A stretch of 64,000 nt of DNA from Patescibacteria group bacterium (GCA_038064835.1 JBBTSD010000003.1:59585-123584); one strand, 5' to 3'. Shown: positions 1,055 to 56,587, counted from the first letter of the stretch. Translations and numbers: made by a program. The notes: generated from the sequence alone by a model not told the origin.

Positions 1055-3724
1055 CTACAATCCGTAAGTCCACTCGATAATCCGATAATTAGTATGCGGA
1101 GGTTCTGTTGACCCAGAGGTCGTTGTTCCAAATTTAAACCAGTTCATAAAGTCAGCGAGGTCGTCGCCAAAGGTGCGCGTCTCGAAAAGGGCGACAAAGA
1201 ACTGTTCTGCCAGCGTTCCAACAATTCCTCCGGTAAAGTTCTCTTCACTTACAGGATCAAGCCCCAACGAATGCGCAAAAGCCTCGGTCGAACTCCCTCG
1301 CACACCACGGAACAGCACGCCCCATCGCGATGCGCTCGGGTGAATGAAGCCAGAGAGATAGGTGCAGGCAGTTCCTGTGGGTGTGTATGAGGAGCTGGGG
1401 GTAATTGCGGTGGTCTGTGGCGAGCAGTACCAGCCGGCGCTGGTGATACCTGTGCTGTTTTCGCGCCCCGGTGTGCCGTAAATCGAATTGCCTGCGCTGT
1501 CTGAGGCGCTCTTGGTATAGCCATCATTGGTGTGCCACGAGGAGGAGAGCGTGCCGTCGGTGGTGCCCAGGGTGCGTTCCATTGATACAGTGCGTTCGGT
1601 AATACCTTTTTCTGGTGATGAATTAACACTGATGGTGAGCGATCCTGCGCACCAGCCACTGCAAGTGGCGACCGCGGGTGTCTGATCAACGAGTATGGTG
1701 CCATTCATAAGTCGGACTTCCTCGCCACTGTCTGACAAGGTTTCGAACGGATACTCGTATGAGTGGTCGGCGGTTGTGGTGTCTGCAGTTCGCTCGATTA
1801 GATAGATGTCGGTGTTGTTGTCTGCATTTGCTGGCGGCAGTGTGCCAGAGAGTGTGATGTTGGGTGTGCCGTCTGCGGTGATGATTGCTAGGTTACTTAT
1901 GTTGAGTGTGTAGGCGCTAAGATTCTTGAGCTCAATCCATTCGCCCTCAGCATTTGCTGTAGTACCTGCCCATGCTACTTCATTAAGTATGATCGGTTGG
2001 GTAATGGTGGTGAGCGTGACGGAAGTAGATGTTGCGGTGTTTCCTGCAGAGTCTCTGGCGACGAGCGTGAGTGTCGAGGTGGCGTTTGAGGAGAGGGTAA
2101 GGGTCGTGCTGGTCGCAGTGGTTGATGCCAGCGCTGTTTCTCCCACATATATCTGATGCTCTGCTGCATCACTGTCATCATTCCATGTTGCAGTGACGGT
2201 GTTTCCTGGGACAAGACAGAACAATGTTGAAAGGGATAAATCACACTCTGTGATGGTGAGTGTGGGGGTAGATGGTGGTGTGGTGTCGGGGGCTGGGGTG
2301 GGTGGTGGTTCTGGTTCTGCTGGTGGCGCAGGTGGAGTTTCTGGCGTGGGAGTTGGCTCGGGCTCAGGTGTGGGTGCGGGCGTTGTTTGACTCCCTGAAG
2401 ATGTGGGTGGTGTATAGGGACTTCCTCCACCACCACTCCCACCCCATGCGCCATCGCCTGCGGTGAATCCCGTTGGGGGTGGTGCTGGGATGGGAAGTGG
2501 TGCGACAAGGAGTGGAGCGGTGGGTACGGGGATAGATGCAACGGGGACAAGTAGTGGTGGAGTGGGAGTGTATGGTATCTCGTCTCTGGTAGTGGGCGCA
2601 GTGGCTGGGGTGGGTGTTGGGCTGGTGGTGGGATTCTCTTCCAAGACAGGGAAACCGGTGCTTGGTTGTTGTGGTCCTGATTCGGTTGCAAATGGTACTG
2701 GTGTGGTTTCGGCACCACCGTCAAGAGCTGTGATTGCTGATGCTGATTGATTTTTGGAAAGACCTGCAATGCGATTACCCAGGAGATTTACCAGGTGTCC
2801 GCCCACTGTCATGAGGGGTTCAGCGATGTTACTTCCCACACGGTGTGCGAGCGCAAGTACGGGTGCGGCGACTTGCCCTGCTGGGTCACCGACAAGGAAT
2901 GCGACCTTCTTGGCGTAGTATGCGGCGGTGCTTTCTGGTGGTGGGATGCATGGTTGGCTGGTATCACGGGTTGGTTCTGCTTCAAGTCGTGAGAGCAGGA
3001 AGGCAATGGTGCCTGCGATATCGGTCGGTCGTTCGGCAAGGTAGGTGGTGCTGATGCCGTGGCCTGCCCATTCGCTTCCCACTTCGGTGGGGTTGCGGGG
3101 GATGCTGGTGTTTGCAGGAAGTGGTTGAGGATAGCCGGATTCTTTTGCTGTTTGGCGTACTTCTGCAATGACTGCGTCGTTTGCATTGGTGAGGTACTTT
3201 CCGTGTCCTGCCACATAGCTTGCGGGGGTGGCTATGTTGTATACCGCAAGTGATTTGGCAGGCACACCTCGTTTGATGAGGTAGTCGTACAGAGCGTTTG
3301 CATAGAAAGTGCCCTGCGAGTGACCGAGTATTAGTATCTTTTGCGTCTTCACCTCTTGCGCCAGTTGTTTGGTGATGGTGAGTAGGTCGAAGTCTTCCTC
3401 GGTCTTCCCTTCTGACTCCCAGGTTTTTTGTAGCATTGACTTCAGTACATCGCCGATGCCGCCGAGGTGGGTGGGGTTGTGAGCAAGTTTTACCGGAACC
3501 AAACCGGTTGTTTGCGGGACACGAGCCCAAAGTTCTGCTTGAATTTTCTCAGCATCTACCTTGGCTTTGTCGTATTCAGTAAAAATCCCATTTATGTAGA
3601 CGACAGTCTCCTTGTTGGTACTACAAGTATCTTCTGAGGCGACAATATATAGTGGCGTCGAGAGCAGAAAAATTAATATTCCTAAAACTGTGCCACCCGC
3701 CAAGCAAGAAACTTTTCGGTTCAT
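1055..3724 (-). CDS. Large secreted multidomain protein: N-terminal signal/TM, alpha/beta-hydrolase (lipase-type GHSQG), Pro/Thr-rich linker, Ig/Fn3-like region and a lamin-tail domain (LTD).
   Basis: The 901-aa ORF contains ILILGHSQGTFYA, a PTPEPEPTPTP low-complexity linker, and LNEVAWAGTTANAEGEWIELKN (LTD signature). The start is probably at MNRKVS after an internal Met. Confidence 0.7.
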   Translation of the reverse strand: MNRKVSCLAGGTVLGILIFLLSTPLYIVASEDTCSTNKETVVYINGIFTEYDKAKVDAEKIQAELWARVPQTTGLVPVKLAHNPTHLGGIGDVLKSMLQKTWESEGKTEEDFDLLTITKQLAQEVKTQKILILGHSQGTFYANALYDYLIKRGVPAKSLAVYNIATPASYVAGHGKYLTNANDAVIAEVRQTAKESGYPQPLPANTSIPRNPTEVGSEWAGHGISTTYLAERPTDIAGTIAFLLSRLEAEPTRDTSQPCIPPPESTAAYYAKKVAFLVGDPAGQVAAPVLALAHRVGSNIAEPLMTVGGHLVNLLGNRIAGLSKNQSASAITALDGGAETTPVPFATESGPQQPSTGFPVLEENPTTSPTPTPATAPTTRDEIPYTPTPPLLVPVASIPVPTAPLLVAPLPIPAPPPTGFTAGDGAWGGSGGGGSPYTPPTSSGSQTTPAPTPEPEPTPTPETPPAPPAEPEPPPTPAPDTTPPSTPTLTITECDLSLSTLFCLVPGNTVTATWNDDSDAAEHQIYVGETALASTTATSTTLTLSSNATSTLTLVARDSAGNTATSTSVTLTTITQPIILNEVAWAGTTANAEGEWIELKNLSAYTLNISNLAIITADGTPNITLSGTLPPANADNNTDIYLIERTADTTTADHSYEYPFETLSDSGEEVRLMNGTILVDQTPAVATCSGWCAGSLTISVNSSPEKGITERTVSMERTLGTTDGTLSSSWHTNDGYTKSASDSAGNSIYGTPGRENSTGITSAGWYCSPQTTAITPSSSYTPTGTACTYLSGFIHPSASRWGVLFRGVRGSSTEAFAHSLGLDPVSEENFTGGIVGTLAEQFFVALFETRTFGDDLADFMNWFKFGTTTSGSTEPPHTNYRIIEWTYGL

Positions 3725-3731
3725 AAGCAAC

Positions 3732-4451
3732 CTAATCATCCAAACTACCGAACTGCACATCGCAGTCTAAAGGCTTGTGTCGATTGAAATTAGGGTTCCC
3801 ATTTCTTGCATATCGATTTGTATCAGAATGAGCTTTTTTGCGATCGTCATTGTTTAGAACCTGTGATTCCACTTCTCCAGTAAGAGCTTGTACTATTTTG
3901 TAATGCTCACTCCCAAGGCTGTTCCCCAAATCCATTTCTTCGCGAGTCCACTGTTGAAGTGGCTTCCTCGGAAGAAGAGTCATGTCCGTTTCATGCAACT
4001 TGTCCAGACAAGAACCTGCCCGTACATACTCATATATTGCACTGTCTAAAGTAGTTCCATTGAAAACATCAGTAAAAAAGCTCTGCAACGCCTGGGCATA
4101 CTGCAACTGCGCAGCACGGATTTTGGCAGACTCGGGGTGGCGACGCCAGATTTCCAATTCCACATCATCCCGTACGCCGTTGTTATTTACATCAATTCCC
4201 GCGACAGTCTTGTTGTTCTTTTTTGCATCTGGCGCAGGTGGCAAGTTCTTTCCCATCACCATGTCCATGGTTACTTTGCGTGCATGGATTCTCTCTACTG
4301 CTTTGGGTGCGATATACCATTTGTATACCATTATCAGTACTCCAATGCCGTACAGCACTGCACAAACAATCAAAATCCACTTGAGAACTTTTTTTGTTTT
4401 CACCCATGCACTCACCTGGACCGACGGATCCGCAGATAACAGATGATTCAT
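3732..4451 (-). CDS. Hypothetical membrane-anchored protein (single N-terminal TM).
   Basis: 239-aa ORF with a hydrophobic segment ILIVCAVLYGIGVLIMVY. No recognisable domain. Confidence 0.45.
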   Translation of the reverse strand: MNHLLSADPSVQVSAWVKTKKVLKWILIVCAVLYGIGVLIMVYKWYIAPKAVERIHARKVTMDMVMGKNLPPAPDAKKNNKTVAGIDVNNNGVRDDVELEIWRRHPESAKIRAAQLQYAQALQSFFTDVFNGTTLDSAIYEYVRAGSCLDKLHETDMTLLPRKPLQQWTREEMDLGNSLGSEHYKIVQALTGEVESQVLNNDDRKKAHSDTNRYARNGNPNFNRHKPLDCDVQFGSLDD

Positions 4452-4926: not shown

Positions 4927-4937
4927 AGGTGTTCTCC

Positions 4938-5396
4938 TTATTGCTTGAACTTGATGACAGGGCAGACCTTCTGCTTCATGGCAACCAGAGATTGCCACAA
5001 GACAGAGAGAATGTCGGGCTCTTTGGGCGCGAATACCTGCGCGGTCTTGCGCGCGCGGTCGTCGAGCCAGTCGCTTGCGACTCCCGCAAACTTGGTGAGG
5101 CCGTAGATAGCCGCAACGAAGAGCGCGATGCCGGCGTATACCGCGACGGTGCTACCGAACCCGAAGAGCTGGAACGGCAGGCCAAGGCACACATACAGCA
5201 GGCCGGCATACACCGCGAGGTGCATCCCGATCACGAGCGGCGCCCACCCGCAAGTCACGCGGATGTACTGGCACAGCGAAGTGCCAGTGGCCAAGAACTC
5301 GCGACTAGAGATGCCGTTGCCGGCGCGGGTAGTATTGATGATGTCGGCCGACCAGAGGAACCAGCGCGAGGCTGGCTTGTCCGAACTCAAGTCCAT
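4938..5396 (-). CDS. Hypothetical polytopic membrane protein.
   Basis: 152 aa with two or three hydrophobic helices. It follows an AAGGAAGG RBS and a consensus promoter. Confidence 0.55.
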   Translation of the reverse strand: MDLSSDKPASRWFLWSADIINTTRAGNGISSREFLATGTSLCQYIRVTCGWAPLVIGMHLAVYAGLLYVCLGLPFQLFGFGSTVAVYAGIALFVAAIYGLTKFAGVASDWLDDRARKTAQVFAPKEPDILSVLWQSLVAMKQKVCPVIKFKQ

Positions 5397-5464
5397 TCGG
5401 ATAGTCCTTCCTTAGTTAAGGTTCAGTCTCGCAACGCCAGAGTAGACTCTAGCGAGCAATTGCT

Positions 5465-5493
5465 ATTATACACCCAAAATTGGTATAAGTCAA
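5465..5493 (-). promoter_or_regulatory. Sigma70-type promoter (TTGACT-17-TATAAT) for the membrane-protein pair.
   Basis: The minus strand reads aacTTGACTtataccaattttgggtgTATAATagc. Confidence 0.55.
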
Positions 5494-5520
5494 GTTCTTT
5501 GTATTTGGAGCTTTTTTGGC

Positions 5521-7248
5521 TTACCCGCAGAGAATTCGTGCCAATTTAAGGTCGTCGAACGAGTACACGCCCTTGAGGGCCGCGTGGACTGGCGAGAGCT
5601 TGTCGGTGCCGTAGGCCTGGAAGGCTTCGGCAATTCGCGGAAGCGCACGGCGCAGTTGTGAAGAAATCATGCGTTCAATTTGTTGTTTGGTCACTTCGTC
5701 TTTGACATACAATGTCTGCAAATGATCAATCACCGTCCCTTCTTTTATATCCCGTGCACGGGCAATGTCTGAAATACTTTTCCCTGAGCGAATAAGTGCG
5801 AGCGTAGTTTCATGCGTGCCTTCTTTCGGAGCTGAGCCGCGCCCTTTCTTTTTCTTGGGCGCCACTCCACCCACCAACGATCCACCGGCGGAATTCAAAA
5901 ACAGACCAACAATCTCGTCGTGTTCACTTGGCTGCATCGCTGAAAATCGCGCGCGCGCATCTGCCGATTGCTGTTTGAAATTGCGTTCTTGGTGCGCCAC
6001 TTCGGGGTGCACTTCGAGTGCGCGTTCGTTGTATCCCACCACATGCAATCCATCGAGTGCGCGCACGCGAGAGAGCGCGACATAACCCTGCCCATATTCA
6101 AATGCTTTTGAGAGATCAACAACTGCTTGGTCGAGCGTCATGCCCTGGCTCTTGTGCACAGTGATTGCCCACGCAAGACGGAGTGGGAGCTGGGTAATGC
6201 GCGCCAAAATTCTGCCGGCCTCGCCCATTGTCCATTCCATAGGCACCACGGTGATAGTGCGTCCATCTATAGTGCGCACGCGCGGGGTCCCGTCAAACGC
6301 AATCTCCATAACATCGCCCACAGTACCGTTGGCAAACTGTCCGCCAATAATGTCATTCTTGGTAAACATGACGCGCGCACCCTTTTTCAGTACCAATGAT
6401 TCCGGAGAAAGACATCCGCGTTTGAGCGAAGCAACCGCCATATCCGACCCCTTGCCAGTCATGTTGTATGTGTGCGATTTCCCAGATATCGATTCAAGGC
6501 GTTCGCTGTTGATGCGATCCACATCCCGGTTGTGCGAAAAAAGTCGTGGCGCTTCTTTTGGCGCTTCAGCTTCCTTTACCACGCGCGACTTGAGCGAGTC
6601 GCGCACTTTTTCAAGTTCCTCACCTCGGCGCACGGCCTGCAACAATTCCAAAAACGAATCGTTTGCTTGGCGATGCTGTTCACTCAGGTAGCACACGATT
6701 GGATTGAGTTCGTACCATGCGCGCGAACGAAACGCGAAAGGCGATGTCTGATCTTCATCCACATCAACACCATCACCCCCGCCATAGCTGCGTCGCACCA
6801 CAGGTGGTAATTGAAAAAAATCACCCACCACCACCACCTGCATACCACCAAACGGTGTCGAGCGTTCGCGCGCCGCCCGTAATATCTGATCCAACATATC
6901 GAGCAAGGAGCCAGAGAGCATTGATATCTCGTCGATAATCAAAACATCAGCACCAGTCAATCGCCGTTTCACATTTTTATTTTCTGCGATGGATGCAACA
7001 TCATACTCGGTGAGATATTCGCGCACGCCAATACCGCTCCACGAATGCAATGTCATACCGCCGATATGTGTGGCGGCAATACCAGTCGAAGCAGTGATGG
7101 CCGGCTCAATACCATGATCCCGCAACCATGCCACATAGGTGTTTATAGTGTGCGTCTTGCCACTTCCCGGCTCGCCCGTGAGAAATACATTCGCGCCTGT
7201 GCGTAGAATCTGCAATGCTTCTTCCTGCATCATGCGGGGATTGTACAC
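5521..7248 (-). CDS. PIF1/RecD-like ATP-dependent DNA helicase with a C-terminal helix-turn-helix domain.
   Basis: Walker A GEPGSGKT, Walker B DEISML, and SF1 helicase motifs. C-terminal TLALIRSGKSISDIARARDIKEGTV resembles an HTH. Confidence 0.75.
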   Translation of the reverse strand: MYNPRMMQEEALQILRTGANVFLTGEPGSGKTHTINTYVAWLRDHGIEPAITASTGIAATHIGGMTLHSWSGIGVREYLTEYDVASIAENKNVKRRLTGADVLIIDEISMLSGSLLDMLDQILRAARERSTPFGGMQVVVVGDFFQLPPVVRRSYGGGDGVDVDEDQTSPFAFRSRAWYELNPIVCYLSEQHRQANDSFLELLQAVRRGEELEKVRDSLKSRVVKEAEAPKEAPRLFSHNRDVDRINSERLESISGKSHTYNMTGKGSDMAVASLKRGCLSPESLVLKKGARVMFTKNDIIGGQFANGTVGDVMEIAFDGTPRVRTIDGRTITVVPMEWTMGEAGRILARITQLPLRLAWAITVHKSQGMTLDQAVVDLSKAFEYGQGYVALSRVRALDGLHVVGYNERALEVHPEVAHQERNFKQQSADARARFSAMQPSEHDEIVGLFLNSAGGSLVGGVAPKKKKGRGSAPKEGTHETTLALIRSGKSISDIARARDIKEGTVIDHLQTLYVKDEVTKQQIERMISSQLRRALPRIAEAFQAYGTDKLSPVHAALKGVYSFDDLKLARILCG

Positions 7249-7777: not shown

Positions 7778-8743
7778 TTACGAAAAATCCTTGCTTCCCA
7801 GAGTTGTGTGATCGGCCGTGGTCACATCTGCGCCATCCCCACCAGTATCACTACTAGTCGGCACTGGCACAGGATCACCGAGCGCGGCAGCACCAAGTGC
7901 TGTCGCCATGGGAGACGGATCGCCTACAACAACATGTGGGACAGGTTCAGCGTCATCAAAGCCTGCCGTCACACCCGCACCACCAGCTTCGCCGCCACGG
8001 CCATAGAATACTTCTTGGGCCTGTGTCGGATGATTCGAGTGGCCGGCCTGTAAGAGCTGGCTCATCAGCCAGACATCGAGCAAGCTCAGGCCAGTTGAGT
8101 CACTGCTTCGCACGGGCGCCTGCCGTTGCGCTTGCACGCGCGCCGACGATTGGCGGAGCGCTGTGGCAATCTGCGGATCAAGTAAGTAGTTGGGCCGCGC
8201 TTGGCGCATCCGTGAGAGTTTCTCGAGTCCAGCCACCTGTTTTTTCAGATCGACTTCTGCGCGACCAAGCGCCTGCAATTCGGTGCGATATTTCTTGATA
8301 TCGGCTTCAATCAAACTGGCCAGATGAAGCCAGTCAGGTTTGATCGGAAGCAAGCCAAGGTAGGAGGTAAGTTTTACACGAAGCATGCTCATTGGCAGAG
8401 CGCGCGTATTGGCCCGACGCCATGCCACACCACCGCCAGTCATCCAAACCCAAAATGGGGCATTGACTTTCGCTTCCGCCACCAAGTCTTGCACATCGCT
8501 TCGTGCACCAAACTCGGGCACTTGGTTGCGTAATTTTTTGAGCGTACCTCGCTCAACATCGGGAAGCAGGCTTTGTGCCCTGGTGCGATAGTAATCACCG
8601 AGTCGCTTTTCGTCGATCCGGATTAAACCTTCTAACTCGCGACGCCGACCTGCGATTTCACGCAAGCGCGCCTCGAGCGCACCCCGCACAGTTGCCACAT
8701 CAGCATTGCTGATGTCCCCGGTAGGGACAGCCTTTCTCATCAT
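7778..8743 (-). CDS. Hypothetical protein (coiled-coil middle, Ala/Gly-rich tail), translationally coupled to the upstream glycosyltransferase-like gene.
   Basis: An ATGA overlap puts its start over the stop of the 8740..9792 gene. No recognisable domain. Confidence 0.5.
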   Translation of the reverse strand: MMRKAVPTGDISNADVATVRGALEARLREIAGRRRELEGLIRIDEKRLGDYYRTRAQSLLPDVERGTLKKLRNQVPEFGARSDVQDLVAEAKVNAPFWVWMTGGGVAWRRANTRALPMSMLRVKLTSYLGLLPIKPDWLHLASLIEADIKKYRTELQALGRAEVDLKKQVAGLEKLSRMRQARPNYLLDPQIATALRQSSARVQAQRQAPVRSSDSTGLSLLDVWLMSQLLQAGHSNHPTQAQEVFYGRGGEAGGAGVTAGFDDAEPVPHVVVGDPSPMATALGAAALGDPVPVPTSSDTGGDGADVTTADHTTLGSKDFS

Positions 8744-9792
8744 GCTATTCTCCTGTTTTTCTGTTTGTTGCTACTGACAGTATCGCCATCTTCCTGCCGC
8801 GATTTGAAGTACTCGTCGAAGTACGCGACAAGTTTGGGTTTCTCGTGTCTGACGCGAGGTGCCCACTCAATTGGCTTACCCGGCTCAATCATGAGATCCG
8901 TGTTCGGGTTGAATCCCGAATCGGTTATCTTCCACATCCGATTGAAGTAGTCACGCTTTGCCAAGGAGCCATGCCACAAGTGGACAATGGCACCGGGTAC
9001 TACGGCTAACTTCCCTTGAACGAGCTCATAGAAAGCAGAGCCCCACCGGCGGAAATGGTCGATCTGTGTGGAATCCTGCTTGAGCGCATTCTCGACACAA
9101 AAGCCCACATGCCCGTAGCTAGCGTGTGCCATAAAGTGATCGGCACTTCCCGATACCGCCGCTTCGTAGAGGCCGACCGCATCGAAAATTTCCCGCCGCA
9201 TTGCCCATGCATAGCCAGTGTGTCCATGCGCATCATAACGCTGCGTGTTCAGAACTGATCGATCCTTGCCAGTAACAGCCGCAAACGAGGTGACGATATC
9301 TGCTGCCTCAATCATGAGATTGCCTTGTTCTAGGCGAACACACTTCTCGAACAATTGGACCACGGCGTGCTCTTTCAAAAGCTCGACCGTTTTTGTGGCC
9401 CATCGCTCGTTGAGAAAAATCACATCGCAGTCAACCCACGCAACCGATTGTGCACTAGCTGGAAGCCAGGATGCGGCAAGATTCAGCAAGCGTTCCTTTT
9501 GCCACAAGAGTGACGCGCTCCGCAGGCGAATGGGGTGACAGCTATCCGGAAGCTCGAATGGCTCATCGCCAAATGCGCACTCGACAGTGAGCAAGGGAAT
9601 CCCTGCTCGTTTGAGCGACTCTGCGAATAGGTCGAAATTTGCTCGACGGGTTTTGTACTTACACGGATTGTAGTAGACCGTGATAACCCAAAGCCCTTCG
9701 GCATAGCGTGCCTTGGGAACATCATCCATATCGAAGCGTTGCCACGGCGACAAGTATCGCTCGTGCGCCAATTCTGCCAGTGGAGTCACCAT
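8740..9792 (-). CDS. Putative nucleotide-diphospho-sugar transferase (GT-A fold, DxD motif).
   Basis: VITVYYNPCKY N-terminal strand and WVDCDVIF (DxD) suggest a GT2-like fold. Assigned by eye only. Confidence 0.4.
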   Translation of the reverse strand: MVTPLAELAHERYLSPWQRFDMDDVPKARYAEGLWVITVYYNPCKYKTRRANFDLFAESLKRAGIPLLTVECAFGDEPFELPDSCHPIRLRSASLLWQKERLLNLAASWLPASAQSVAWVDCDVIFLNERWATKTVELLKEHAVVQLFEKCVRLEQGNLMIEAADIVTSFAAVTGKDRSVLNTQRYDAHGHTGYAWAMRREIFDAVGLYEAAVSGSADHFMAHASYGHVGFCVENALKQDSTQIDHFRRWGSAFYELVQGKLAVVPGAIVHLWHGSLAKRDYFNRMWKITDSGFNPNTDLMIEPGKPIEWAPRVRHEKPKLVAYFDEYFKSRQEDGDTVSSNKQKNRRIA

Positions 9793-9845
9793 GCTTCGCG
9801 ATTCCTTTTCTAAGCCTTTTCTGTCAACGAAGTTCTATGCGAGAC

Positions 9846-9905
9846 TCTAACACATTATTTTCTTATGTAAATAGCCTGCCATATTTTGTTGCATATAAAG
9901 GATTC
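9846..9905 (+). promoter_or_regulatory. Conserved roughly 60-nt upstream block (copy 1), shared with the dus upstream region.
   Basis: tctaacacattattttcttatgtaaatagcctgccatattttgttgcatataaagg matches tctaacatattactttcatatgtcaatagtctgtggtactatgttttcgtgg (minus strand, 34020..34075) at about 70% identity. Confidence 0.5.
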
Positions 9906-9914
9906 CTGCATAGA

Positions 9915-10793
9915 ATGGCGCGAATGTTCACAATTCCCTCCTTGGGCCGCTTTGTCGCTCTTCTGGCCGGATTTTTTGTTGTGCTTATTTTTGCCGGTGT
10001 CGTCTGGATCGCTACCCATCAGGAAGTGCAGCCGGGTAGCGTTTATAATGTTGTCTTGAAGCCAGTGGAGGAAGTGTATGGTGCAACCTCTGCCCTGATG
10101 CAGGCCGAACCGCCACAACTGCTGTATGTACGCGTCACTCAAAGTTGTGGCCCCTATTTTGGCGGTGAGTGCGTCGTCATCCGGTCTGGTCCAGGCACCC
10201 ACTACCCTATCGTGATGCGTATGCGCACCGACGCAGTATTGCACGCTGATTCAGAAATTGCAGACGGCATACGCACCTGGTATCGCATTGCCCAAGACGA
10301 TTGGCTTCGTTATCCTGAGCGCGTGCGTGGCGAATGGTACATTGCATCAGACTTTGTCGAACCAATTCGAACTGCGGGAACTCAAGAACTTTCTGATTTT
10401 GCCACAACAGCAACCAGTACAAAAAGGATTGTTGTCGATCGCTCCAACCAGACACTTTTTGCCTACGATGGCGATACTTTGTATATGCAAGAAATCATTT
10501 CCACCGGACTCGAGCTGACACCCACGCCACGCGGTACATTTACCATCTATAAAAAAACTCCAAGCCGTTACATGCAGGGGCCTATACCTGGGATTGGAGA
10601 TCAGCATTACGATTTACCGGGCGTGCCATGGAATCTGTATTTCACCAGCGGCGGTGCGGTAATCCACGGGGCCTACTGGCACGATAAATTTGGCACACAG
10701 TGGTCGCATGGGTGCGTAAATCTTCCACCGGAAAAAGCGCGTACATTGTACGAGTGGGCCGAGGTGGGGACGCAAGTGACTGTGCGTGACTAA
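9915..10793 (+). CDS. L,D-transpeptidase (YkuD domain) with an N-terminal TM anchor.
   Basis: The catalytic HGAYWHDKFGTQWSHGCVNL motif (His/Cys) is present. The in-frame ATG at 9915 precedes the TM helix. Confidence 0.8.
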   Translation: MARMFTIPSLGRFVALLAGFFVVLIFAGVVWIATHQEVQPGSVYNVVLKPVEEVYGATSALMQAEPPQLLYVRVTQSCGPYFGGECVVIRSGPGTHYPIVMRMRTDAVLHADSEIADGIRTWYRIAQDDWLRYPERVRGEWYIASDFVEPIRTAGTQELSDFATTATSTKRIVVDRSNQTLFAYDGDTLYMQEIISTGLELTPTPRGTFTIYKKTPSRYMQGPIPGIGDQHYDLPGVPWNLYFTSGGAVIHGAYWHDKFGTQWSHGCVNLPPEKARTLYEWAEVGTQVTVRD

Positions 10794-10887: not shown

Positions 10888-11139
10888 TTAACCTTCGTAG
10901 TTGGGACTATTTGGATTACTTGGGTCTCGATCTTTCTCATCTTCATCTTCATCATTCGCTCCCCGCGGTCCCGTACCGTTGTCGTAGTTGGGACTATTTG
11001 GATTACTTGGGTCTCGATCTTCCGCATCCCCATCAGTAGCTCCCCGCGGTCCCGTACCGTTGTCATAATCAGGACTATCATAGTGCTCACTACCTCCCTT
11101 TCGCCTAGGCCCATGATCCATAGATTCCGCTTGTGACAT
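10888..11139 (-). CDS. Small acidic repeat protein encoded by the tandem repeat (DPSNPNSPNYDNGTGPRGA x2).
   Basis: The ORF spans the repeat on the minus strand. TGcTATATT (extended -10) lies upstream of the MSQAESM start. No SD. Confidence 0.35.
   Translation of the reverse strand: MSQAESMDHGPRRKGGSEHYDSPDYDNGTGPRGATDGDAEDRDPSNPNSPNYDNGTGPRGANDEDEDEKDRDPSNPNSPNYEG
10896..11085. repeat. Tandem direct repeat with an 87-bp period (two full copies plus a partial third).
   Basis: cgtagttgggactatttggattacttgggtctcgatctt...ccgcggtcccgtaccgttgt recurs at 10896 and 10983. Confidence 0.85.
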
Positions 11140-11348
11140 ATCTTTATAAAAAATGACTGGTATGCAATTTAATATAGCACACTTGTCCGTAGAATTAATG
11201 TCGCTGGTCACCTGTCCCAAAAACTATGTACATCTCACTTCTCAGGCATGAGCGATAGTATGCAACAGTAGGCTAAACAAGCTCAAGACCTTGGAATTTA
11301 GTGCGGCGTAAACCGGACTGAAGAGGATTTGAGGGTCTATTGCGGAGC

Positions 11349-11398: not shown

Positions 11399-11938
11399 CT
11401 ATTCGATAATCAACTTTCCCACCATGCCATTTTGGCGATGTTTGCCAACCGAGCAATAGTACTCGAACGAACCTGTCTTGTCGGCTACAAAAGTAACCGA
11501 GGTCTTGGTCCCTGGGCGCACTTGATCGGTCTTTGCTTTGAATTCATCGACAACCCAGTCGTGAAATCCCTGCGTGCTCTCAAAATTAATGGTTACGGTC
11601 TCTCCTTTCTTCACGCGAATTTCTTTCTGTGAGAACAGGAAATCTTTTCCGGTGATTGCAATCGCTTTGGCAGTACCTGTAGTCTCAACCGACGCAGCTT
11701 TTGTGTCCGCTGCGCCACTTGTCATAACACCCACCTCTGCATCCTTCAATGCACCTGCATCTACATCAACCATCGCGTCCGCATGCTCTTCCACCACTTC
11801 ATCGCCATCTGTATCCATCATGACTGTGGTGTCAACAACAGGAGCTTCAGGCGCAGGCGCCGTCTTCTTTCCTTGAATCATGAACCAACCCAGACCGGCA
11901 ACAACAACCAACAACACTAATGCCATTACTCCTTTCAT
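11399..11938 (-). CDS. Cupredoxin (plastocyanin/pseudoazurin-like blue copper protein) with an N-terminal anchor.
   Basis: Type-1 Cu ligand pattern: His in FHDWVV, then YYCSVGKHRQNGMVGKL (Cys-His-Met). Confidence 0.7.
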   Translation of the reverse strand: MKGVMALVLLVVVAGLGWFMIQGKKTAPAPEAPVVDTTVMMDTDGDEVVEEHADAMVDVDAGALKDAEVGVMTSGAADTKAASVETTGTAKAIAITGKDFLFSQKEIRVKKGETVTINFESTQGFHDWVVDEFKAKTDQVRPGTKTSVTFVADKTGSFEYYCSVGKHRQNGMVGKLIIE

Positions 11939-17038: not shown

Positions 17039-19699
17039 ATGAAGCGATTGTTGCAATACACAATCCTGTTTCTCATCCGCCTCATCATCCCCCTGCACTA
17101 CAAAGTGCGGGTCAAAAACATCGAGGCAGTCAAAGGGCTCACGGGCGGGCTCATTATGCCCGACCACACCGCCCTCACCGATCCAGTCATTCTGATGAGC
17201 AGAATATGGAAGCACACAAAGGCTCGCCCGGTGGTCTACACCGGACAGTTCGTGAAGCATCCGTTCTTGATGAAGCTCATCGGCGCACTTCCTATGGACA
17301 GCACCTCTGACGGCAGCGGTTCATGGAAGCTGTGGAAAATTCGCAAACAGAAGAAAGCCGTGCACCACACACTCGCCGAGGAAGGTGAGAATGTGCTGAT
17401 CTATCCCTCGGGACAACTGCGCTCCGACGAATTCGAATCTCTCGGTGGTAAGTCGAGTGCCTTCGAGCTCATCAGCGAGAACACCGGCACCCCCGTGGTG
17501 CTGGTGCGTATCCGCGGCTTGCGCGGCAGTTTCCTCTCACGCTTTTACACCGGCGGTGTGCGCACGCCTGACGGCCTGCATCTCAAGGCGCTTCTCAAGG
17601 CGAATTGGATGCGCTGGCTCTTCAATCGTGTGCCAGTCACTATCGAATTCGAGCGCTTCGACACTCTGCCGAAGTTCGCTTCGGTCGACGAGTGCAATCG
17701 ATGGCTCGAGCGCTGGTATCATCAGACGCCCGACCCCGTGCCTGAAGGCCGCGAACAGTGGCAGGTGCAAGGCTTTGACTACGGTCGCAAAGCAGCCGAT
17801 CACGACAATGTCGCGATCGACTCGCGGATCGCCGCAAAGGTCATCGCTTTCATCGCCAAGGAACAGGGCGGCCGGGCGCAAGAGATTTCGCTCGACGACG
17901 AACTGATTTCGGATCTTGGCCTCGACTCGCTCACCACGATCTCACTTTACATGTGGGTCGAGGAGGAGTTTGGTCATTCGGTCGACATGAATGCACCGCT
18001 CGTCACCGTGCGCGATGTTGCCCTCGCCGCTCAAGGCGTCCTCACCGAGGTCGTCGTGGAACAGGTCGAGGAAACACCCGCACACTGGATCGAAGAAAAC
18101 CGAAAAGCCCCCGCTTCAATCCCGGGTGCTCACAACATTCCTTATGCGTTTTTGCGCACCATGCGTCGCCTTGGCCGTTCAGCCATCGCGATGGGCGACG
18201 AACGCATCGGCGGAAAATGCACGCTCACATATGGACAAGTATGCGAGCGTGGTTTGATGCTCTCGCAAATTGTTCGCAGTCTTCCTGGAAAACGAGTCGG
18301 GATTATGTTGCCTGCTTCGGCAGGTGCCGCGGTGACCGGACTGTCTGTGATGTTTGCGGGACGCGTTCCCGTCTTCCTCAATTGGACAAACGGCAGTGCC
18401 GCACTCGACGAATCAATTCGAATTGCTGGCGTGGGAGTCGTCCTCACTTCGGACGCGTTCCTCGACAAGGCGCAGTGCATGCTCTCGGACGAGACAGCCG
18501 CAAAGCTGCTCCCGCTCGAACAAGTACGCAAACAGCTCGGCCTGAAGCATCTCATCAGGGGAAAGCTGCTCTCGCGGCTTCCGACATGGATGCTTCTGCG
18601 CGTCTTGGGTGCGAACTTCAAGCGCGACGAAGATGCCGTCATTCTGTTTACCAGCGGCTCTGAGAAAGCGCCGAAAGGCGTCCGACTCACCCACCGAAAC
18701 ATTCTCTCGAATGTGCACGGCGCCCTCACCGCAATCGGCGGCGAGCCGACTGATGTGATGCTGGGCTTCTTGCCCCCGTTCCATTCGTTTGGATTGACGC
18801 TCATCAACATGCTCTGCCTCACTGGCGGCGTGAAGACAGCGTATGAACCCGACCCAAAGAAGTATCGCCGCCTCGCCAAGCAGACTCGAAAGTGGCAGGC
18901 CACCCTGATTCCCGGGACACCGGATTTCTTGAGTGGCATTCTCACTTCCGGATCAATCGAAGACTTCAAAACTGTGCGCGCATTTTTGTCGGGTGCTCAA
19001 AAGGCTCCGGCATCGCTTCGTGCATTAGTTGAGCGAGTCAATTCCGTTCTCATCGAAGGGTACGGTATCACTGAAACCGGGCCACTCATCTCGGTCAATC
19101 GAATCGGCCACCCAATGGTCGGTGTGGGGCAGCCCATACTCGACAGCGAGGTGATCTTCGTCAATCCGGCAACGCACGAAATTGTTGCCGACGAAAACGA
19201 AGGTCTTATTCTCGTCCAGGGTCCCGGCGTCTCGCCAGGATACTTGGGAGAAATGCCGTTCCCCATCCTGCATGCCTACGGCGCCGATTGGTACAATACC
19301 GGCGACCTTGGCAAAAAAATGCCGGAAGGTGACATTGTTATCACCGGCCGCCAATCGCTGTTCCTGAAATCAGGCGGCGAGATGGTGAGCATTCCGGCAA
19401 TCGAAGAAACACTTATTGGTCTCTGGCCGACAGGAGAAAACGGACCCGTAGTGACGGTCCATGGCGAAGAGCGCGACGGCCAACCGGCTCTCGTCTGCCT
19501 CTATACCACCGACGAATCCGCAACGCTTGAAAAAGCGAACGCGGCACTGAAGTCGGCGGGTCTCAGCCCACTGTCGTATGTGCGTGTCCGATGCGTCCTA
19601 CCCGAAATTCCCTTGTTGGGAACCGGCAAGACGAACCGGCGCGCACTGCCCAAGCCAACCGATGTGCTTGCAACCCAGGCACAAAGCGCTGCCGCATAA
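17039..19699 (+). CDS. Tridomain fusion of lysophospholipid acyltransferase (PlsC-type), phosphopantetheine carrier domain and acyl-activating enzyme (Aas-like acyl-ACP synthetase).
   Basis: N-terminal H-x4-D motif (PDHTALTD) and YPSGQ. Middle DLGLDSL (serine attachment site). C-terminal TSGSEKAPKGV, GYGITETGP, YNTGDLG...GR. Confidence 0.75.
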   Translation: MKRLLQYTILFLIRLIIPLHYKVRVKNIEAVKGLTGGLIMPDHTALTDPVILMSRIWKHTKARPVVYTGQFVKHPFLMKLIGALPMDSTSDGSGSWKLWKIRKQKKAVHHTLAEEGENVLIYPSGQLRSDEFESLGGKSSAFELISENTGTPVVLVRIRGLRGSFLSRFYTGGVRTPDGLHLKALLKANWMRWLFNRVPVTIEFERFDTLPKFASVDECNRWLERWYHQTPDPVPEGREQWQVQGFDYGRKAADHDNVAIDSRIAAKVIAFIAKEQGGRAQEISLDDELISDLGLDSLTTISLYMWVEEEFGHSVDMNAPLVTVRDVALAAQGVLTEVVVEQVEETPAHWIEENRKAPASIPGAHNIPYAFLRTMRRLGRSAIAMGDERIGGKCTLTYGQVCERGLMLSQIVRSLPGKRVGIMLPASAGAAVTGLSVMFAGRVPVFLNWTNGSAALDESIRIAGVGVVLTSDAFLDKAQCMLSDETAAKLLPLEQVRKQLGLKHLIRGKLLSRLPTWMLLRVLGANFKRDEDAVILFTSGSEKAPKGVRLTHRNILSNVHGALTAIGGEPTDVMLGFLPPFHSFGLTLINMLCLTGGVKTAYEPDPKKYRRLAKQTRKWQATLIPGTPDFLSGILTSGSIEDFKTVRAFLSGAQKAPASLRALVERVNSVLIEGYGITETGPLISVNRIGHPMVGVGQPILDSEVIFVNPATHEIVADENEGLILVQGPGVSPGYLGEMPFPILHAYGADWYNTGDLGKKMPEGDIVITGRQSLFLKSGGEMVSIPAIEETLIGLWPTGENGPVVTVHGEERDGQPALVCLYTTDESATLEKANAALKSAGLSPLSYVRVRCVLPEIPLLGTGKTNRRALPKPTDVLATQAQSAAA

Positions 19700-19734: not shown

Positions 19735-20970
19735 TTAATGTCCAGTACCCGCACCGGTAACTCCATCAAATATATCCGCTCGTTTTTCTCCCTCGACGGA
19801 AATGGTCCCCCAAGCACCCTTGTCGAGCCGTGCCAGCGCGTGGTCTACCAGCACATAAGTCCCGGGGATATCTGCAGTGAATTCAACAATGGCTGCACCA
19901 CCCGACGGAACAAGTGTCGTTTGTACATTCTGAAAAAGACTTCCTCCCATTTGAGCTTCGGGGTAAACCGTGTCAAATATCTCGCCGATGAGATGAAATG
20001 AGGAGATGAGGTTCACTCCACCATTCCCCACATAGACACGAACTTTTTCACCTTGGTGGAGCACGAGCCTATCTTTTGAGACTGCGCCCACTCGGCCATT
20101 GAAAACAATATATTCCGGGTTCCCTGCAAGCATCCTCCCAGCGTCAATAACCTGTAGGCCCTTAATCCCTCTGCCCCCCGCAGTGTACAACTCTCCCTGC
20201 ATCACATAGAGTTCACGATCAACCGCGGGCAAGGCAACTTTTGGCTCGACCAAAATAAGTCCGTACATACCGTGTGCCATGTGGTTTGCAACATTTGGGT
20301 GGGCACAATGGTACACATACAGACCGGGATTGAGTGCTTTGAACGAAAGTGTCTTCTCTTCACCAGGTGCAACATCAGTAACAGTTGCTCCTCCACCGGG
20401 CCCAGTAACTGCATGCAGATCAATACTATGTCTGTGCAGACTCGAAGGGTCGTTTTTCAGTTTCAATGTTACCTGATCACCCTCTCGTATACGCAGAAAT
20501 GGACCGGGTACTGTGCCCTCAAATGTCCAATAATTTACCAGGACTCCTGGCGCAACTTCTGAGAGAACTTCTTTTGCTACCAGCGCAATTTCTACTGTCG
20601 TTGTGCTAGTGCGCTCGATAGGTGCCGGCACATCCAGCGGGTCGCGCGCTATGTCCTTGACTCGTTCGAAATGCTGCAGATTCGAGAAAAATGAGAAAAT
20701 ATTTTTGAGTGGAAGCCCAGGCCCTTCAGCGGGTCCGTAGGTGTGCATCCCGAAAGGATATTGTAAATCTCTGTTCACACCGACAGGAAACCAAAAGAAA
20801 AGCATCACGCCTGCAAAAAAAGCGCCCATAAGAATCGTGTCGCGAAGTGAGTGATGCTTTCTGAGAACGAGATAGAGAAACGCCAGTGCTGCGAGACCAG
20901 CAAGCACCAGTCCAAAACCCTGGACGATTAGATAGTGCACGAGTGACCACATCTGACCAATCATTTCCAT
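19735..20970 (-). CDS. nirK: Copper-containing nitrite reductase (NirK-type two-domain multicopper oxidase) with an N-terminal 2-TM anchor.
   Basis: HSIDLHAVTG (type-1/type-2 Cu His pair), YVYHCAHPNVANHMAHGMYG (Cys/His/Met), and C-terminal VDHAL His. Confidence 0.75.
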   Translation of the reverse strand: MEMIGQMWSLVHYLIVQGFGLVLAGLAALAFLYLVLRKHHSLRDTILMGAFFAGVMLFFWFPVGVNRDLQYPFGMHTYGPAEGPGLPLKNIFSFFSNLQHFERVKDIARDPLDVPAPIERTSTTTVEIALVAKEVLSEVAPGVLVNYWTFEGTVPGPFLRIREGDQVTLKLKNDPSSLHRHSIDLHAVTGPGGGATVTDVAPGEEKTLSFKALNPGLYVYHCAHPNVANHMAHGMYGLILVEPKVALPAVDRELYVMQGELYTAGGRGIKGLQVIDAGRMLAGNPEYIVFNGRVGAVSKDRLVLHQGEKVRVYVGNGGVNLISSFHLIGEIFDTVYPEAQMGGSLFQNVQTTLVPSGGAAIVEFTADIPGTYVLVDHALARLDKGAWGTISVEGEKRADIFDGVTGAGTGH

Positions 20971-21022
20971 GCCGCCATTATATCACTGCAAAAGCACGAA
21001 AGTCTGATGCTATACTGAACAC

Positions 21023-22669
21023 ATGTCGCTTGCTATTGAAGATTTGAAAAAAGCAGTGCGCGGAGATGTGGTAAACGACCAGAAGACCCGCGCCATCTAC
21101 AGCGAAGACGCAAGCATATTCCATCTCCAGCCTGCCTGTGTAGTTTCTCCGAAAGACACTGCCGATCTGCAGTCTTTGGTGCGCTATGCGCATGAACACC
21201 GTGCCGACATGTCGCTCACTGCACGAGCCGCAGGCACCGATATGAGTGGTGGCCCACTCACCACATCGGTAGTGGTAGATTTTTTGAAATATTTTAACAA
21301 AACGCTGGAAGTGAACGACGCCGGCTGGGCACGGGCACAGCCCGGCGCCTACTACAGAGACTTCGAGAAAGCAACCCTTGCAAAGGGATGGTTGCTTCCC
21401 TGCTATACCGCATCGCGCGAGTTGAACACTGTGGGTGGTATGGTGGCCAACAATTCTGGTGGTGAGCAATCACTGACCTACGGAAAGACCAACCGCTATG
21501 CACGCGAAATTGAAATGGTACTCGACGACGGATCACTCTTCCGTTTCAAAAAGCTCACTCGAGCAGAGCTCGAGCAAGTAAAGTCTGAGCACACAAGGGC
21601 AGGTGATATTCACCGTCATATCGAACAGCTTATCGCTCAACACCAGGAAAAAATCGCAAAGGCAAAACCAGCAGTTTCTAAAGACTCAACAGGTTATGCA
21701 TTATGGGATGTCTGGGACCGCAAGGCCGACACCTTCGACCTTACGCAGATTATCGTTGGTTCTCAAGGAACACTCGGTCTTATTTCTGAAATTGATTTTT
21801 CGCTGGTGCGTCCTAAGAAAAATTCCCAAATGCTCGTGATTTTCCTCCACCGGCGTGACATGCAAAAGCTTGGCCACTTGGTCAATGCCATTCTTGCCCA
21901 CAAACCTGAAAGCTTTGAGTCCTACGACGACCATACTTTTTTGATTCTTCTTAAAGTCCTTCCCAGTATGCTCAAGCGCCTCGGCGCCACTATTTTTTCG
22001 CTCGGATGGAAGTTCCTTCCCGAGATGCGTTCCGTGCTTACCGGCGGTATTCCCAAACTGGTTCTTCTAGCACAATTTACGAGCGACGATGCGCATGAAG
22101 CTCGAGTGCAAGCCGAAAAAGCGCGGGACGACCTTGCGTCGTTTCATGTGCAAACTCACCTCACTAAGGACGCATCCGAAAGCGAGAAGTACTGGGTCAT
22201 CCGTCGCGAAAGCTTCAACCTATTGCGCTCGCATGTACACGGCAAATTAACAGCTCCGTTTATCGATGACCTTTCGGTACTTCCAGAGAAACTTCCAGAG
22301 TTTCTCCCCAAATTGTATGCAATTCTTGACGAATACGATATTACCTATACCATCGCCGGGCATGTGGGCGACGGCAACTTCCACATTATTCCCCTCGTTG
22401 ATTTCTCAAGGCCTGACCTTGCACAAATCTTCCACGACCTTTCCGAAAAAGTCTATGACCTCACTTTTTCCTTTGGCGGTTCGATGAGTGGCGAACACAA
22501 CGACGGACTTATTCGCACACCGTTTCTTGAAAAAATGTATGGCCGCGACATCGTAGCGCTTTTCGAGGAGACCAAAAATATTTTTGACCCACTTACCATC
22601 TTTAACCCTCACAAGAAAGTCAACTTCAAACCGGAGCTGGCAATCCTCAAAAGCGGAAAGAGTGCATAG
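21023..22669 (+). CDS. FAD-linked oxidase (GlcD / D-lactate dehydrogenase family).
   Basis: FAD_binding_4-type motifs LTARAAGTDMSGGPL and VGGMVANNSGG. 548 aa. Divergent from nirK, with only a 52-nt spacer. Confidence 0.8.
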   Translation: MSLAIEDLKKAVRGDVVNDQKTRAIYSEDASIFHLQPACVVSPKDTADLQSLVRYAHEHRADMSLTARAAGTDMSGGPLTTSVVVDFLKYFNKTLEVNDAGWARAQPGAYYRDFEKATLAKGWLLPCYTASRELNTVGGMVANNSGGEQSLTYGKTNRYAREIEMVLDDGSLFRFKKLTRAELEQVKSEHTRAGDIHRHIEQLIAQHQEKIAKAKPAVSKDSTGYALWDVWDRKADTFDLTQIIVGSQGTLGLISEIDFSLVRPKKNSQMLVIFLHRRDMQKLGHLVNAILAHKPESFESYDDHTFLILLKVLPSMLKRLGATIFSLGWKFLPEMRSVLTGGIPKLVLLAQFTSDDAHEARVQAEKARDDLASFHVQTHLTKDASESEKYWVIRRESFNLLRSHVHGKLTAPFIDDLSVLPEKLPEFLPKLYAILDEYDITYTIAGHVGDGNFHIIPLVDFSRPDLAQIFHDLSEKVYDLTFSFGGSMSGEHNDGLIRTPFLEKMYGRDIVALFEETKNIFDPLTIFNPHKKVNFKPELAILKSGKSA

Positions 22670-23667: not shown

Positions 23668-24612
23668 ATGCGCATTCTTGTACCTGGGGTCGCTATCCTG
23701 CTTGCCTTTTTCAGCGTTTTTTTACTCTCCACTGACATAACACCTTCACCTTCAACAGCACCCGATAGGCCAATACGCACGAAAGAAGTCGAGCAACGAC
23801 CGGCACACTTTTCTGACTCTTTTTGGAATGAAATCCTGCAAAAGCAGGGGGCCGTCGCTGCGCATGACACACTTTTAAAAATTGCCAGTCAGGCATCCGA
23901 CCAAGACCAGCACAAGCTCGGGCACTTGTTTGGAAAAGCACTCTACACCACAAACGGCCTTGCCGGATTCCCTATTTGCGGTGTCGAACTTAACGGAGGC
24001 TGTGTACATGAATTTGTCGCCTCGGCCGTCCACGACCAAGGAGTCGGCGTGGTGCAAAAACTGAATAGTGCCTGCCAAACGCGATTCACTGAGAACGACG
24101 CTATTACCTGTCAGCATGGACTCGGACATGGCCTTATTACTTATTTTGGATACGACACTGAAGCTCTTTCAAAGAGCTTGGATGCGTGCGCAACGATCAC
24201 CTCGAAGAATCATACGAAGGGATGCTATGGCGGTGCCTTTATGGAATATAATCTGCGCACGATGCGTGAAAATACTACGCGTGACTACAATTCGACACAG
24301 CCTTTCAGCCCTTGCTTCGACCTGGCGCCCATCTACCAAAACTCCTGCTTTTTTTGGCTACAACAATTGTGGTTTCGAACCGAGTATAACGAAAAACACA
24401 CCGAAGAAACGTTTGCTGAGGTTGGATCTCTCTGCCAAAAGCTTGAACCAGTATTTCGCGAAGCCTGTTTTAGCGGAGTTGGCTACGGAGGCGCACCCGA
24501 AGCAGGACTCAACTCAGAAAAAACACACGCATTTTGTCGAGCGGCTTCACGGGGTGATGCGCAAGATTTTGCCGACTGCTGGGTAGAAGCGCAAAAAGCA
24601 GTCGTGCACTGA
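23668..24612 (+). CDS. Secreted Cys-rich hypothetical protein (14 Cys, repeated C-x-x-G-x-G-x-G-like segments).
   Basis: N-terminal signal/TM ILVPGVAILLAFFSVFLL. No recognisable domain. Confidence 0.45.
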   Translation: MRILVPGVAILLAFFSVFLLSTDITPSPSTAPDRPIRTKEVEQRPAHFSDSFWNEILQKQGAVAAHDTLLKIASQASDQDQHKLGHLFGKALYTTNGLAGFPICGVELNGGCVHEFVASAVHDQGVGVVQKLNSACQTRFTENDAITCQHGLGHGLITYFGYDTEALSKSLDACATITSKNHTKGCYGGAFMEYNLRTMRENTTRDYNSTQPFSPCFDLAPIYQNSCFFWLQQLWFRTEYNEKHTEETFAEVGSLCQKLEPVFREACFSGVGYGGAPEAGLNSEKTHAFCRAASRGDAQDFADCWVEAQKAVVH

Positions 24613-55492: not shown

Positions 55493-55542
55493 CTCTGGTC
55501 TCCGATTCCGCACGAACCTTATCAGGTCATACCCTCTACAGC

Positions 55543-55570
55543 AACAAAAAACCGCATCCGAAGATGCGGC
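55543..55570 (-). terminator. Hairpin plus U-run between pyrD and pyrC. Either a terminator or an attenuator.
   Basis: The minus strand reads ccgcatc ttcg gatgcgg followed by tttttt. Confidence 0.55.
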
Positions 55571-55589
55571 CGATTTTAATTTTCCTGCT

Positions 55590-56492: not shown

Positions 56493-56587
56493 TCGTTTTC
56501 CTTGTCCGCCGGGCACTATATAGGAGGCATAGATGCAGGGCAACAGAAAATGACTTGCGCAGGCAAGTCATCCATTAGCTTTTTCGG

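Follow-up and report, generated by a model that had tools for sequence, protein, structure and literature searches.

In this study, we have examined a 64,000-nucleotide stretch of DNA from a Patescibacteria group bacterium (GCA_038064835.1, JBBTSD010000003.1:59585-123584; hereafter the window), and in particular one minus-strand gene (19735..20970) whose 411-amino-acid product is, judged by its residue-level alignments and its predicted fold, a genuine copper nitrite reductase (NirK) of the AniA/HdNIR-like subgroup and of a clade found in Patescibacteria. We consider it highly probable that this protein is the membrane-anchored NirK of a Parcubacteria/Kaiserbacteria-type bacterium and that an anchored blue copper protein encoded elsewhere in the window is its likeliest electron donor. 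A first-pass annotation of the window had proposed a membrane-anchored NirK at this position, and its central claim, the identity of the enzyme, held up against an equivalog score above cutoff, an invariant set of ligands and a matching fold.

The product scores 311.1 bits against the NirK equivalog model TIGR02376 (EC 1.7.2.1), for which the cutoff is 296.3 bits (E 9.6e-93, residues 103-404). Its best NirK matches in the Protein Data Bank (PDB) lie at E 1e-91 to 1e-97, with AniA of Neisseria as the best (5tb7 and 1kbv, E ~1e-96; 53% identity over 292 aligned columns of the catalytic core) and with the cores of the three- and four-domain enzymes PhNiR (2zoo), HdNIR (2dv6, 6tfd), RpNiR (3ziy) and that of Bradyrhizobium (6THE) at E 1e-91 to 1e-95. 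The anammox enzyme of KSU-1 (5zl1), described in its entry title as a hexameric soluble enzyme, is a relative of the next tier with lower similarity (E 8.5e-66), and the NirKs of Geobacillus (1e-48) and Nitrosomonas (8e-40) and the classical AcNiR, AxNiR and AfNiR (1e-33 to 1e-37) are more distant. The catalytic core itself spans residues 113-400 (19771..20634, minus strand), and alignment to AniA and PhNiR together with a Foldseek comparison resolves it into two cupredoxin domains. An AlphaFold2 model of the monomer (mean predicted local distance difference test score, pLDDT, 70.8) superimposes on 6THE, AniA and RpNiR with target-normalised TM-scores of about 0.8 (0.80-0.83 for 6THE and AniA; Foldseek, E 1e-33 to 1e-35).

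The alignment to AniA and PhNiR also places every copper ligand. Residues H181, C222, H230 and M235 fall in the columns of the type-1 copper ligands of AniA, the type-2 copper ligands are H186, H221 and H377, one of these histidines coming from the second domain, and the catalytic pair consists of D184 (within H-S-I-D-L-H) and H326 (within S-S-F-H-L). All nine of these canonical residues are retained without exception, both in 121 close homologues and in 34 that are more divergent. The ligand pattern put forward in the first-pass annotation was thus right in its outline, with the HxxxxH motif being H181-x4-H186 and the C-terminal histidine being H377, with H326 upstream of it; the spacing between the cysteine and the following histidine, given as x8-11, is x7 (C222-x7-H230-x4-M235).

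The alternative that the same reading frame encodes a laccase-like or two-domain multicopper oxidase has some superficial appeal, in that Pfam recognises only the generic Cu-oxidase_3 and Cu-oxidase_2 domains and that models of CopA, CueO and laccase give weak matches. These multicopper-oxidase models and that of ascorbate oxidase, however, reach 17-54 bits where 470-615 would be needed, and the NirK equivalog is passed. The three type-2 histidines, whose absence would have marked such an oxidase, are present and invariant together with D184 and H326, the cysteine stands in the context H221-C222-A223 rather than in the H-C-H of oxidases with a trinuclear cluster, and the best 40-plus structural matches of the protein are all NirK. 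Ligand alignment, scores below cutoff and the H-C-A motif together refute the multicopper-oxidase identity, to which we assign a practically negligible probability.

Two further histidines flank the type-1 copper ligands: H179 (H179-x-H181; minus-strand codon 20434..20436), which 32 of 34 clade members share, and H233 (H230-x2-H233; minus-strand codon 20272..20274), which all 34 share. The corresponding residues of AniA are Pro and Asn. The two histidines may serve in donor docking or form a second metal site. At the other end of the core, the protein stops after 11 residues, in a variable Gly/Ser/Asp-rich tail (19738..19770, minus strand) with a near-invariant Gly-His end (G410-H411, 19738..19743); the final His is found in 33 of the 34 clade members and the preceding Gly in 31. 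We considered this ending as a novelty of the clade and rejected the idea, as ...PGAGH is also what the aligned position of 6THE shows.

A public protein (P0001) is 100% identical to the window NirK, and hundreds of full-length homologues at 70-80% identity carry the name copper-containing nitrite reductase. The best 120 protein matches are 70-100% identical with 96-100% coverage, and those among them that bear a taxon name are all assigned to Kaiserbacteria, Paceibacterota, Parcubacteria, Minisyncoccota or Patescibacteria. In addition, the nirK loci that we compared for synteny (62 GTDB species representatives, L001-L062) all come from Patescibacteria-type metagenome-assembled genomes, two closed genomes included. 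By homology, then, the window NirK is a member of the NirK clade of the candidate phyla radiation (CPR, or Patescibacteria). Some submitter labels do not agree with this picture: L022, L025, L060 and many 'Saccharibacteria' loci are titled Bdellovibrionales or Saccharibacteria, and their NirKs have the anchor of the clade and are 57-80% identical to proteins of Kaiserbacteria and Paceibacteria, so that the submitter taxonomy of these loci is probably unreliable.

This clade is already known. In 2017, nirK was described in Kaiserbacteria and Harrisonbacteria as a distinct CPR clade with conserved type-1 and type-2 ligands, with a cupredoxin in every nirK-bearing bin and with Brocadia-type sequences placed beside it (Danczak et al., 2017, PMC5581439). 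Later reports present nirK as common among groundwater CPR bacteria (PMC7906910, PMC11188291) and as a sparsely distributed CPR trait that was probably acquired laterally (PMC7304191). The window NirK is a further member of this published and routinely annotated clade, with which it shares 70-80% full-length identity (extension included), the copper ligands and a cupredoxin in the genome, and from which we found no substantive difference. The first-pass annotation had called nitrite reduction a notable capacity for such an organism; the NirK is indeed there, but the capacity had been published for the lineage (PMC5581439, PMC7906910 and PMC11188291). The helical anchor and the homology between the cupredoxin and HdNIR, discussed below, are useful details and not discoveries.

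The feature that sets this clade apart from the crystallised enzymes is its N-terminus. The first-pass annotation described an extension of about 60 residues that carries, instead of a cleavable signal peptide, two predicted transmembrane helices. The two helices were borne out by hydropathy and by AlphaFold2, but measured against the crystallised catalytic cores the extension is longer, at about 105 residues, made up of a 65-residue hairpin and a linker of about 45 residues. Hydrophobic stretches (Kyte-Doolittle >1.6) cover residues 10-37 (20860..20943, minus strand; peak 2.38) and 45-65 (20776..20838, minus strand; about 2.0), and AlphaFold2 draws helices at residues 2-16, 19-39 and 42-64, the first break falling in the invariant Q17-G18-F19-G20-L21, which puts a kink in helix 1. 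Other invariant polar or aromatic positions of the hairpin are W8, W60 and P62, besides Q17, G18 and G20. The linker follows (residues 66-112; 20635..20775, minus strand), lies next to the membrane and carries the conserved motif YPFG..YGP..GP.LPLKN..FF...FERV.DIARDP.DVP over some 45 residues between helix 2 and the part that aligns with crystal structures, with low AlphaFold2 confidence at residues 62-86. In a divergent set of homologues (54-80% overall identity), mean pairwise identity is 0.54 and 0.52 in the two helices, 0.63 in the linker and 0.75 and 0.70 in the catalytic domains.

Helices 1 and 2 are joined by a positively charged loop (residues 38-44, RKHHSLRD), which across 121 homologues holds a mean of 2.83 Lys/Arg per sequence as compared to 0.19 in the N-terminal tail. 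The positive-inside rule would therefore put this loop in the cytoplasm, with both ends of the hairpin and the copper domains outside, and we predict that the catalytic domain sits on the outer side of the cytoplasmic membrane. Patescibacteria have no outer membrane that could retain the enzyme, and anchoring at the outer face makes sense in such cells. Fragmentary NirK relatives (P0128, P0130, P0133, P0136, P0140 and P0145) have a third N-terminal transmembrane helix after a Lys/Arg-rich tail; such a three-helix anchor with its N-terminus inside would therefore again place the catalytic domain outside. Hydropathy, the AlphaFold2 helices, the charge count and conservation across the clade thus all speak for the membrane anchor that had been proposed.

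Could these hydrophobic segments be something other than a permanent anchor? The true start might lie downstream, or a long signal sequence might be removed, so that a soluble NirK would be set free outside the cell. In the public database, P0001 is called from a start two residues later (409 aa), an internal Met48 precedes helix 2, and the N-terminal tail has no positive residues, which is atypical of a signal peptide but also makes the start codon less certain. Against this, homologues span the whole query including the extension (coverage 98-100%), and residues 1-105 are conserved as protein down to 54% identity, from which it follows that they are translated. Starting at Met48 would leave a helix without a positively charged N-region, no Ala-x-Ala-type cleavage site was seen by eye after helix 2 (FPVGVNRD), and a released enzyme would be lost from cells without an outer membrane. 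We therefore regard a downstream start or a cleaved signal as quite unlikely and retain the uncleaved two-helix hairpin, which the clade conserves where a lipobox or a cleavable signal peptide would otherwise stand.

Residues 1-105 contain no Cys, no CxxCH, no type-1 copper motif and no Pfam domain, which argues for an anchor and not for a redox domain. The extension also appears to be confined to this clade. When residues 1-105 were searched exhaustively with phmmer (HMMER) against 1.84 billion cluster representatives, 27 hits were obtained. BLASTP aligned 25 of them to the query, and these are all NirKs of this clade, either truncated or frameshifted. The extension was not found on other protein types in that collection, the lone non-NirK hit being a 21-residue match to a 5271-aa protein. 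We thus rejected an independent domain family, the phmmer hits being fragments of same-clade NirKs, and by this search the N-terminal extension is clade-specific. Full-text literature searches, whose coverage did not extend to subscription journals, and a term search of PMC5581439 gave no description of a transmembrane-helix anchor on NirK, so that the helical anchor seems to be undescribed in the searchable literature.

Comparison with characterised enzymes helps to place this architecture. AniA of Neisseria gonorrhoeae (1kbv, 5tb7), which has two domains, shares with the window NirK the ligand set, the SSFH around the catalytic His, the fold and the fact of being tethered to a membrane. AniA is a lipoprotein whose lipidated Cys tethers it to the outer membrane. 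Unlike this lipid tether, the predicted anchor of the window NirK is an uncleaved hairpin in the cytoplasmic membrane, followed by the conserved 45-residue linker. The cores of HdNIR (2dv6, 6tfd) and of the four-domain enzyme from Bradyrhizobium ORS 375 (6THE) are equally close (E 1e-91 to 1e-94), and the ...G-H tail is common to 6THE and the window protein. In contrast to these enzymes, the extension of the window NirK is a transmembrane hairpin without cofactor and the protein lacks a fused cupredoxin or cytochrome c domain; the homologue of the fused N-terminal cupredoxin of HdNIR is, in the window, a separate protein with its own anchor. The two-helix tether is therefore a different solution from both the lipid anchor of AniA and the fused redox domains of the three-domain NirKs.

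That separate protein is encoded on the minus strand at 11399..11938 and is a membrane-anchored type-1 (blue) copper protein of 179 aa (Pfam Copper-bind, 37.6 bits against a cutoff of 21.2). An N-terminal transmembrane anchor at residues 3-22 is followed by a 65-residue acidic linker (net charge -13) and a C-terminal plastocyanin-like domain, in which the type-1 ligands H126, C162, H167 and M172 align with the motif yyC....H....M of the N-terminal domain of HdNIR. Its closest solved relative is in fact this NirK-fused cupredoxin domain of Hyphomicrobium (2dv6, residues 57-128, and 6tfd; E 9e-17), and the cores of the same two structures are among the closest relatives of the window NirK. On this Rosetta-stone reasoning (a partner fused to the core in one organism and separate in another) we argue for a donor-acceptor pair, and the cupredoxin is the probable electron donor to NirK. 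Its role as a possible donor, raised in the first-pass annotation, is strengthened by the finding that its best solved relative is the tethered domain of three-domain NirKs. Such a fusion-type link between cupredoxin and NirK is absent from the passages of the CPR papers available to us, and it makes of the two proteins a concrete and testable pair. An open reading frame of 110 aa with a TTG start (10888..11220, minus strand) adjoins the cupredoxin gene; it contains a tandem repeat, DRDPSNPNSPNY(D/E)(N)GTGPRGA, matches no Pfam entry and could be either a real gene or a spurious frame.

Based on these results, a working model can be outlined. The hairpin would insert with both ends outside and the loop in the cytoplasm, and three hairpins would hold a NirK trimer on the outer face of the cytoplasmic membrane. 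An electron would enter at the type-1 copper (H181/C222/H230/M235) from the co-anchored blue copper protein and would cross the Cys222-His221 bridge to the type-2 copper, held by H186, H221 and H377 of the neighbouring subunit, where nitrite would be reduced to nitric oxide (NO), D184 and H326 delivering the protons. One could go further and imagine that the three hairpins of the trimer form a six-helix membrane module that docks the anchored cupredoxin or another electron-input complex of the membrane. The pairwise identity of 52-54% in the hairpin and its invariant positions are compatible with such a module, and nothing positively supports it; we consider it unlikely. If true, it would represent a minimal, quinone-independent and membrane-integrated nitrite-reducing assembly peculiar to Patescibacteria.

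Several observations weigh against the model of an anchored NirK supplied by the cupredoxin. The AlphaFold2 confidence is only moderate, with pLDDT averaging below 50 for residues 61-90 and 261-300, and what we infer past sequence and fold comprises the activity, the copper content, the trimer and the topology. The gene of the cupredoxin does not share an operon with nirK, the two lying 7.8 kb apart in the window, and a cupredoxin homologue occurs within 10 kb of nirK in only one of the 62 loci, the other hits being domain I of NirK itself; the linkage being weak, we base the pairing on homology and on published work. Furthermore, a Pfam scan of approximately 50 open reading frames of the window (threshold E<=0.001) found no NADH dehydrogenase, cytochrome, quinone-linked complex, NO reductase (Nor) or Nos, and the window therefore does not settle the source of the electrons or the fate of NO. 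As possible sources for CPR NirK, an Nqo-like complex or NDH-2 is discussed in PMC5581439, where the physiological role of these enzymes is also called questionable.

It is thus conceivable that the enzyme is not respiratory at all, and that it produces NO as a signal or toxin directed at a host or neighbour, acts as an electron sink that conserves no energy, or detoxifies nitrite. The failure to find NO reductase, cytochrome or quinone-linked complex in the 64 kb is in line with these possibilities, and the same options have been raised for CPR NirK in the literature (PMC5581439 and PMC11188291). The sequence, on the other hand, discriminates between none of the physiological roles. We see a non-respiratory role as close to evenly balanced, tilted slightly against; it concerns the purpose of the enzyme and not its mechanism, and is compatible with the anchored, cupredoxin-supplied NirK that we favour. 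In either case, a small-genome organism of the Patescibacteria type is predicted to carry one step of denitrification, from nitrite to NO, as reported for the lineage in 2017, and in groundwater and soil this step has a bearing on nitrogen loss and NO production.

Another suggestion for the electron supply comes from the gene next door. As the first-pass annotation had it, nirK is divergent from a GlcD-like FAD-linked oxidase (FAD, flavin adenine dinucleotide): the gap is exactly 52 nt (20971..21022), and the plus-strand gene beyond it (21023..22669) encodes a 548-aa FAD-linked 2-hydroxyacid oxidase/dehydrogenase with the Pfam domains FAD_binding_4 and FAD-oxidase_C. Membership of this superfamily is certain on those domain matches, the substrate less so. 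Among NCBIfam models, those of YdiJ (D-2-hydroxyglutarate dehydrogenase; N-terminal half) and GlcD come closest, with the equivalog cutoffs of YdiJ, GlcD and GlcE not reached, and the PDB relatives of the protein are glycolate oxidase, LctD and the D-2-hydroxyglutarate and D-lactate dehydrogenases. No signal peptide or transmembrane segment was seen when its N-terminus was read by eye, and the Fe-S half of YdiJ is missing; the protein is probably a cytoplasmic 2-hydroxyacid dehydrogenase.

The proximity of the two genes invites the hypothesis of a redox module, in which the oxidation of a 2-hydroxyacid (e.g., D-lactate) would feed nitrite reduction under a shared 52-nt control region. A homologue of the oxidase lies within 10 kb of nirK in six of the 62 loci, four times in convergent orientation (Yonathbacteria-like), once on the same strand and once divergent at 4 kb; these six loci, in at least three arrangements spread across subclades, may slightly exceed chance, for which our own rough estimate is about one locus. 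However, the pairing is missing from the other 56 loci and its orientation varies, so there is no conserved operon. The oxidase is cytoplasmic, whereas the copper domains of NirK are predicted to be outside, and it is without the Fe-S/CCG half through which enzymes of the YdiJ type are attached to the membrane. In addition, the commonest neighbours of nirK are others, namely an ArsR-like regulator (16 loci) and genes for ribonucleotide reductase and cobalamin. We rejected the oxidase as a conserved partner of NirK; the pairing, not being conserved, says little on function, and we find the redox module very unlikely.

Within the 52-nt region, a -10-like hexamer precedes each start codon (both seen by eye): TATAAT, 6 nt upstream of the ATG of nirK on the minus strand, and TATACT, 7 nt upstream of the ATG of the oxidase. 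A scan for consensus promoters did not find a full two-hexamer sigma-70 promoter in this region, and no Shine-Dalgarno-like sequence was seen by eye between the -10-like hexamers and the two start codons. Both genes may be transcribed as leaderless mRNAs. In the window, nirK is monocistronic.

The other nirK loci have more recurrent surroundings: a Cys-rich ArsR/HTH_20 regulator in 16 of the 62, class II ribonucleotide reductase in 14, DUF4430 in 11, PduO in 10 and NrdD/NrdG in 5. The regulator (about 121 aa) is directly upstream of nirK in its 16 loci, as in L009, where its gene (9632..9997) ends 3 nt before nirK, and it is a candidate copper-, redox- or NO-responsive regulator of nirK. In L005, L027, L031 and about ten further loci, class II ribonucleotide reductase or class III NrdD/NrdG, a PduO-type cobalamin adenosyltransferase and DUF4430 are found one to four genes upstream of nirK. 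None of these, neither the ArsR-like regulator nor class II/III ribonucleotide reductase, PduO or DUF4430, is present in the 64-kb window.

The remaining annotated genes of the window are those of housekeeping (BipA, Obg, DnaX, Dus, IMPDH, SerRS, TopA, RelA/SpoT, ParB, PyrF, PyrD, MiaA, ClpB and others), and apart from the FAD oxidase the only flavoenzyme worth mentioning is a dihydroorotate dehydrogenase (55590..56543). Together with the Patescibacteria-type origin of all 62 loci and with the Pfam scan finding no respiratory genes besides nirK, this fits the reduced gene set assumed in the first-pass annotation. Six sizeable open reading frames have no Pfam match at E<=0.001 (1055..3760, 3732..4451, 7778..8743 and 54410..55597 on the minus strand; 4929..5549 and 23668..24612 on the plus strand), among them a frame of 901 aa and one of 314 aa whose product is rich in Cys and hydrophobic at its N-terminus. 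Finally, the gene convergent with nirK (17039..19699, plus strand) encodes an 886-aa fusion of acyltransferase, phosphopantetheine-binding (acyl carrier protein) and AMP-binding (AMP-ligase) domains, similar to Aas of lysophospholipid acylation, as would fit an organism of reduced genome that scavenges lipids.

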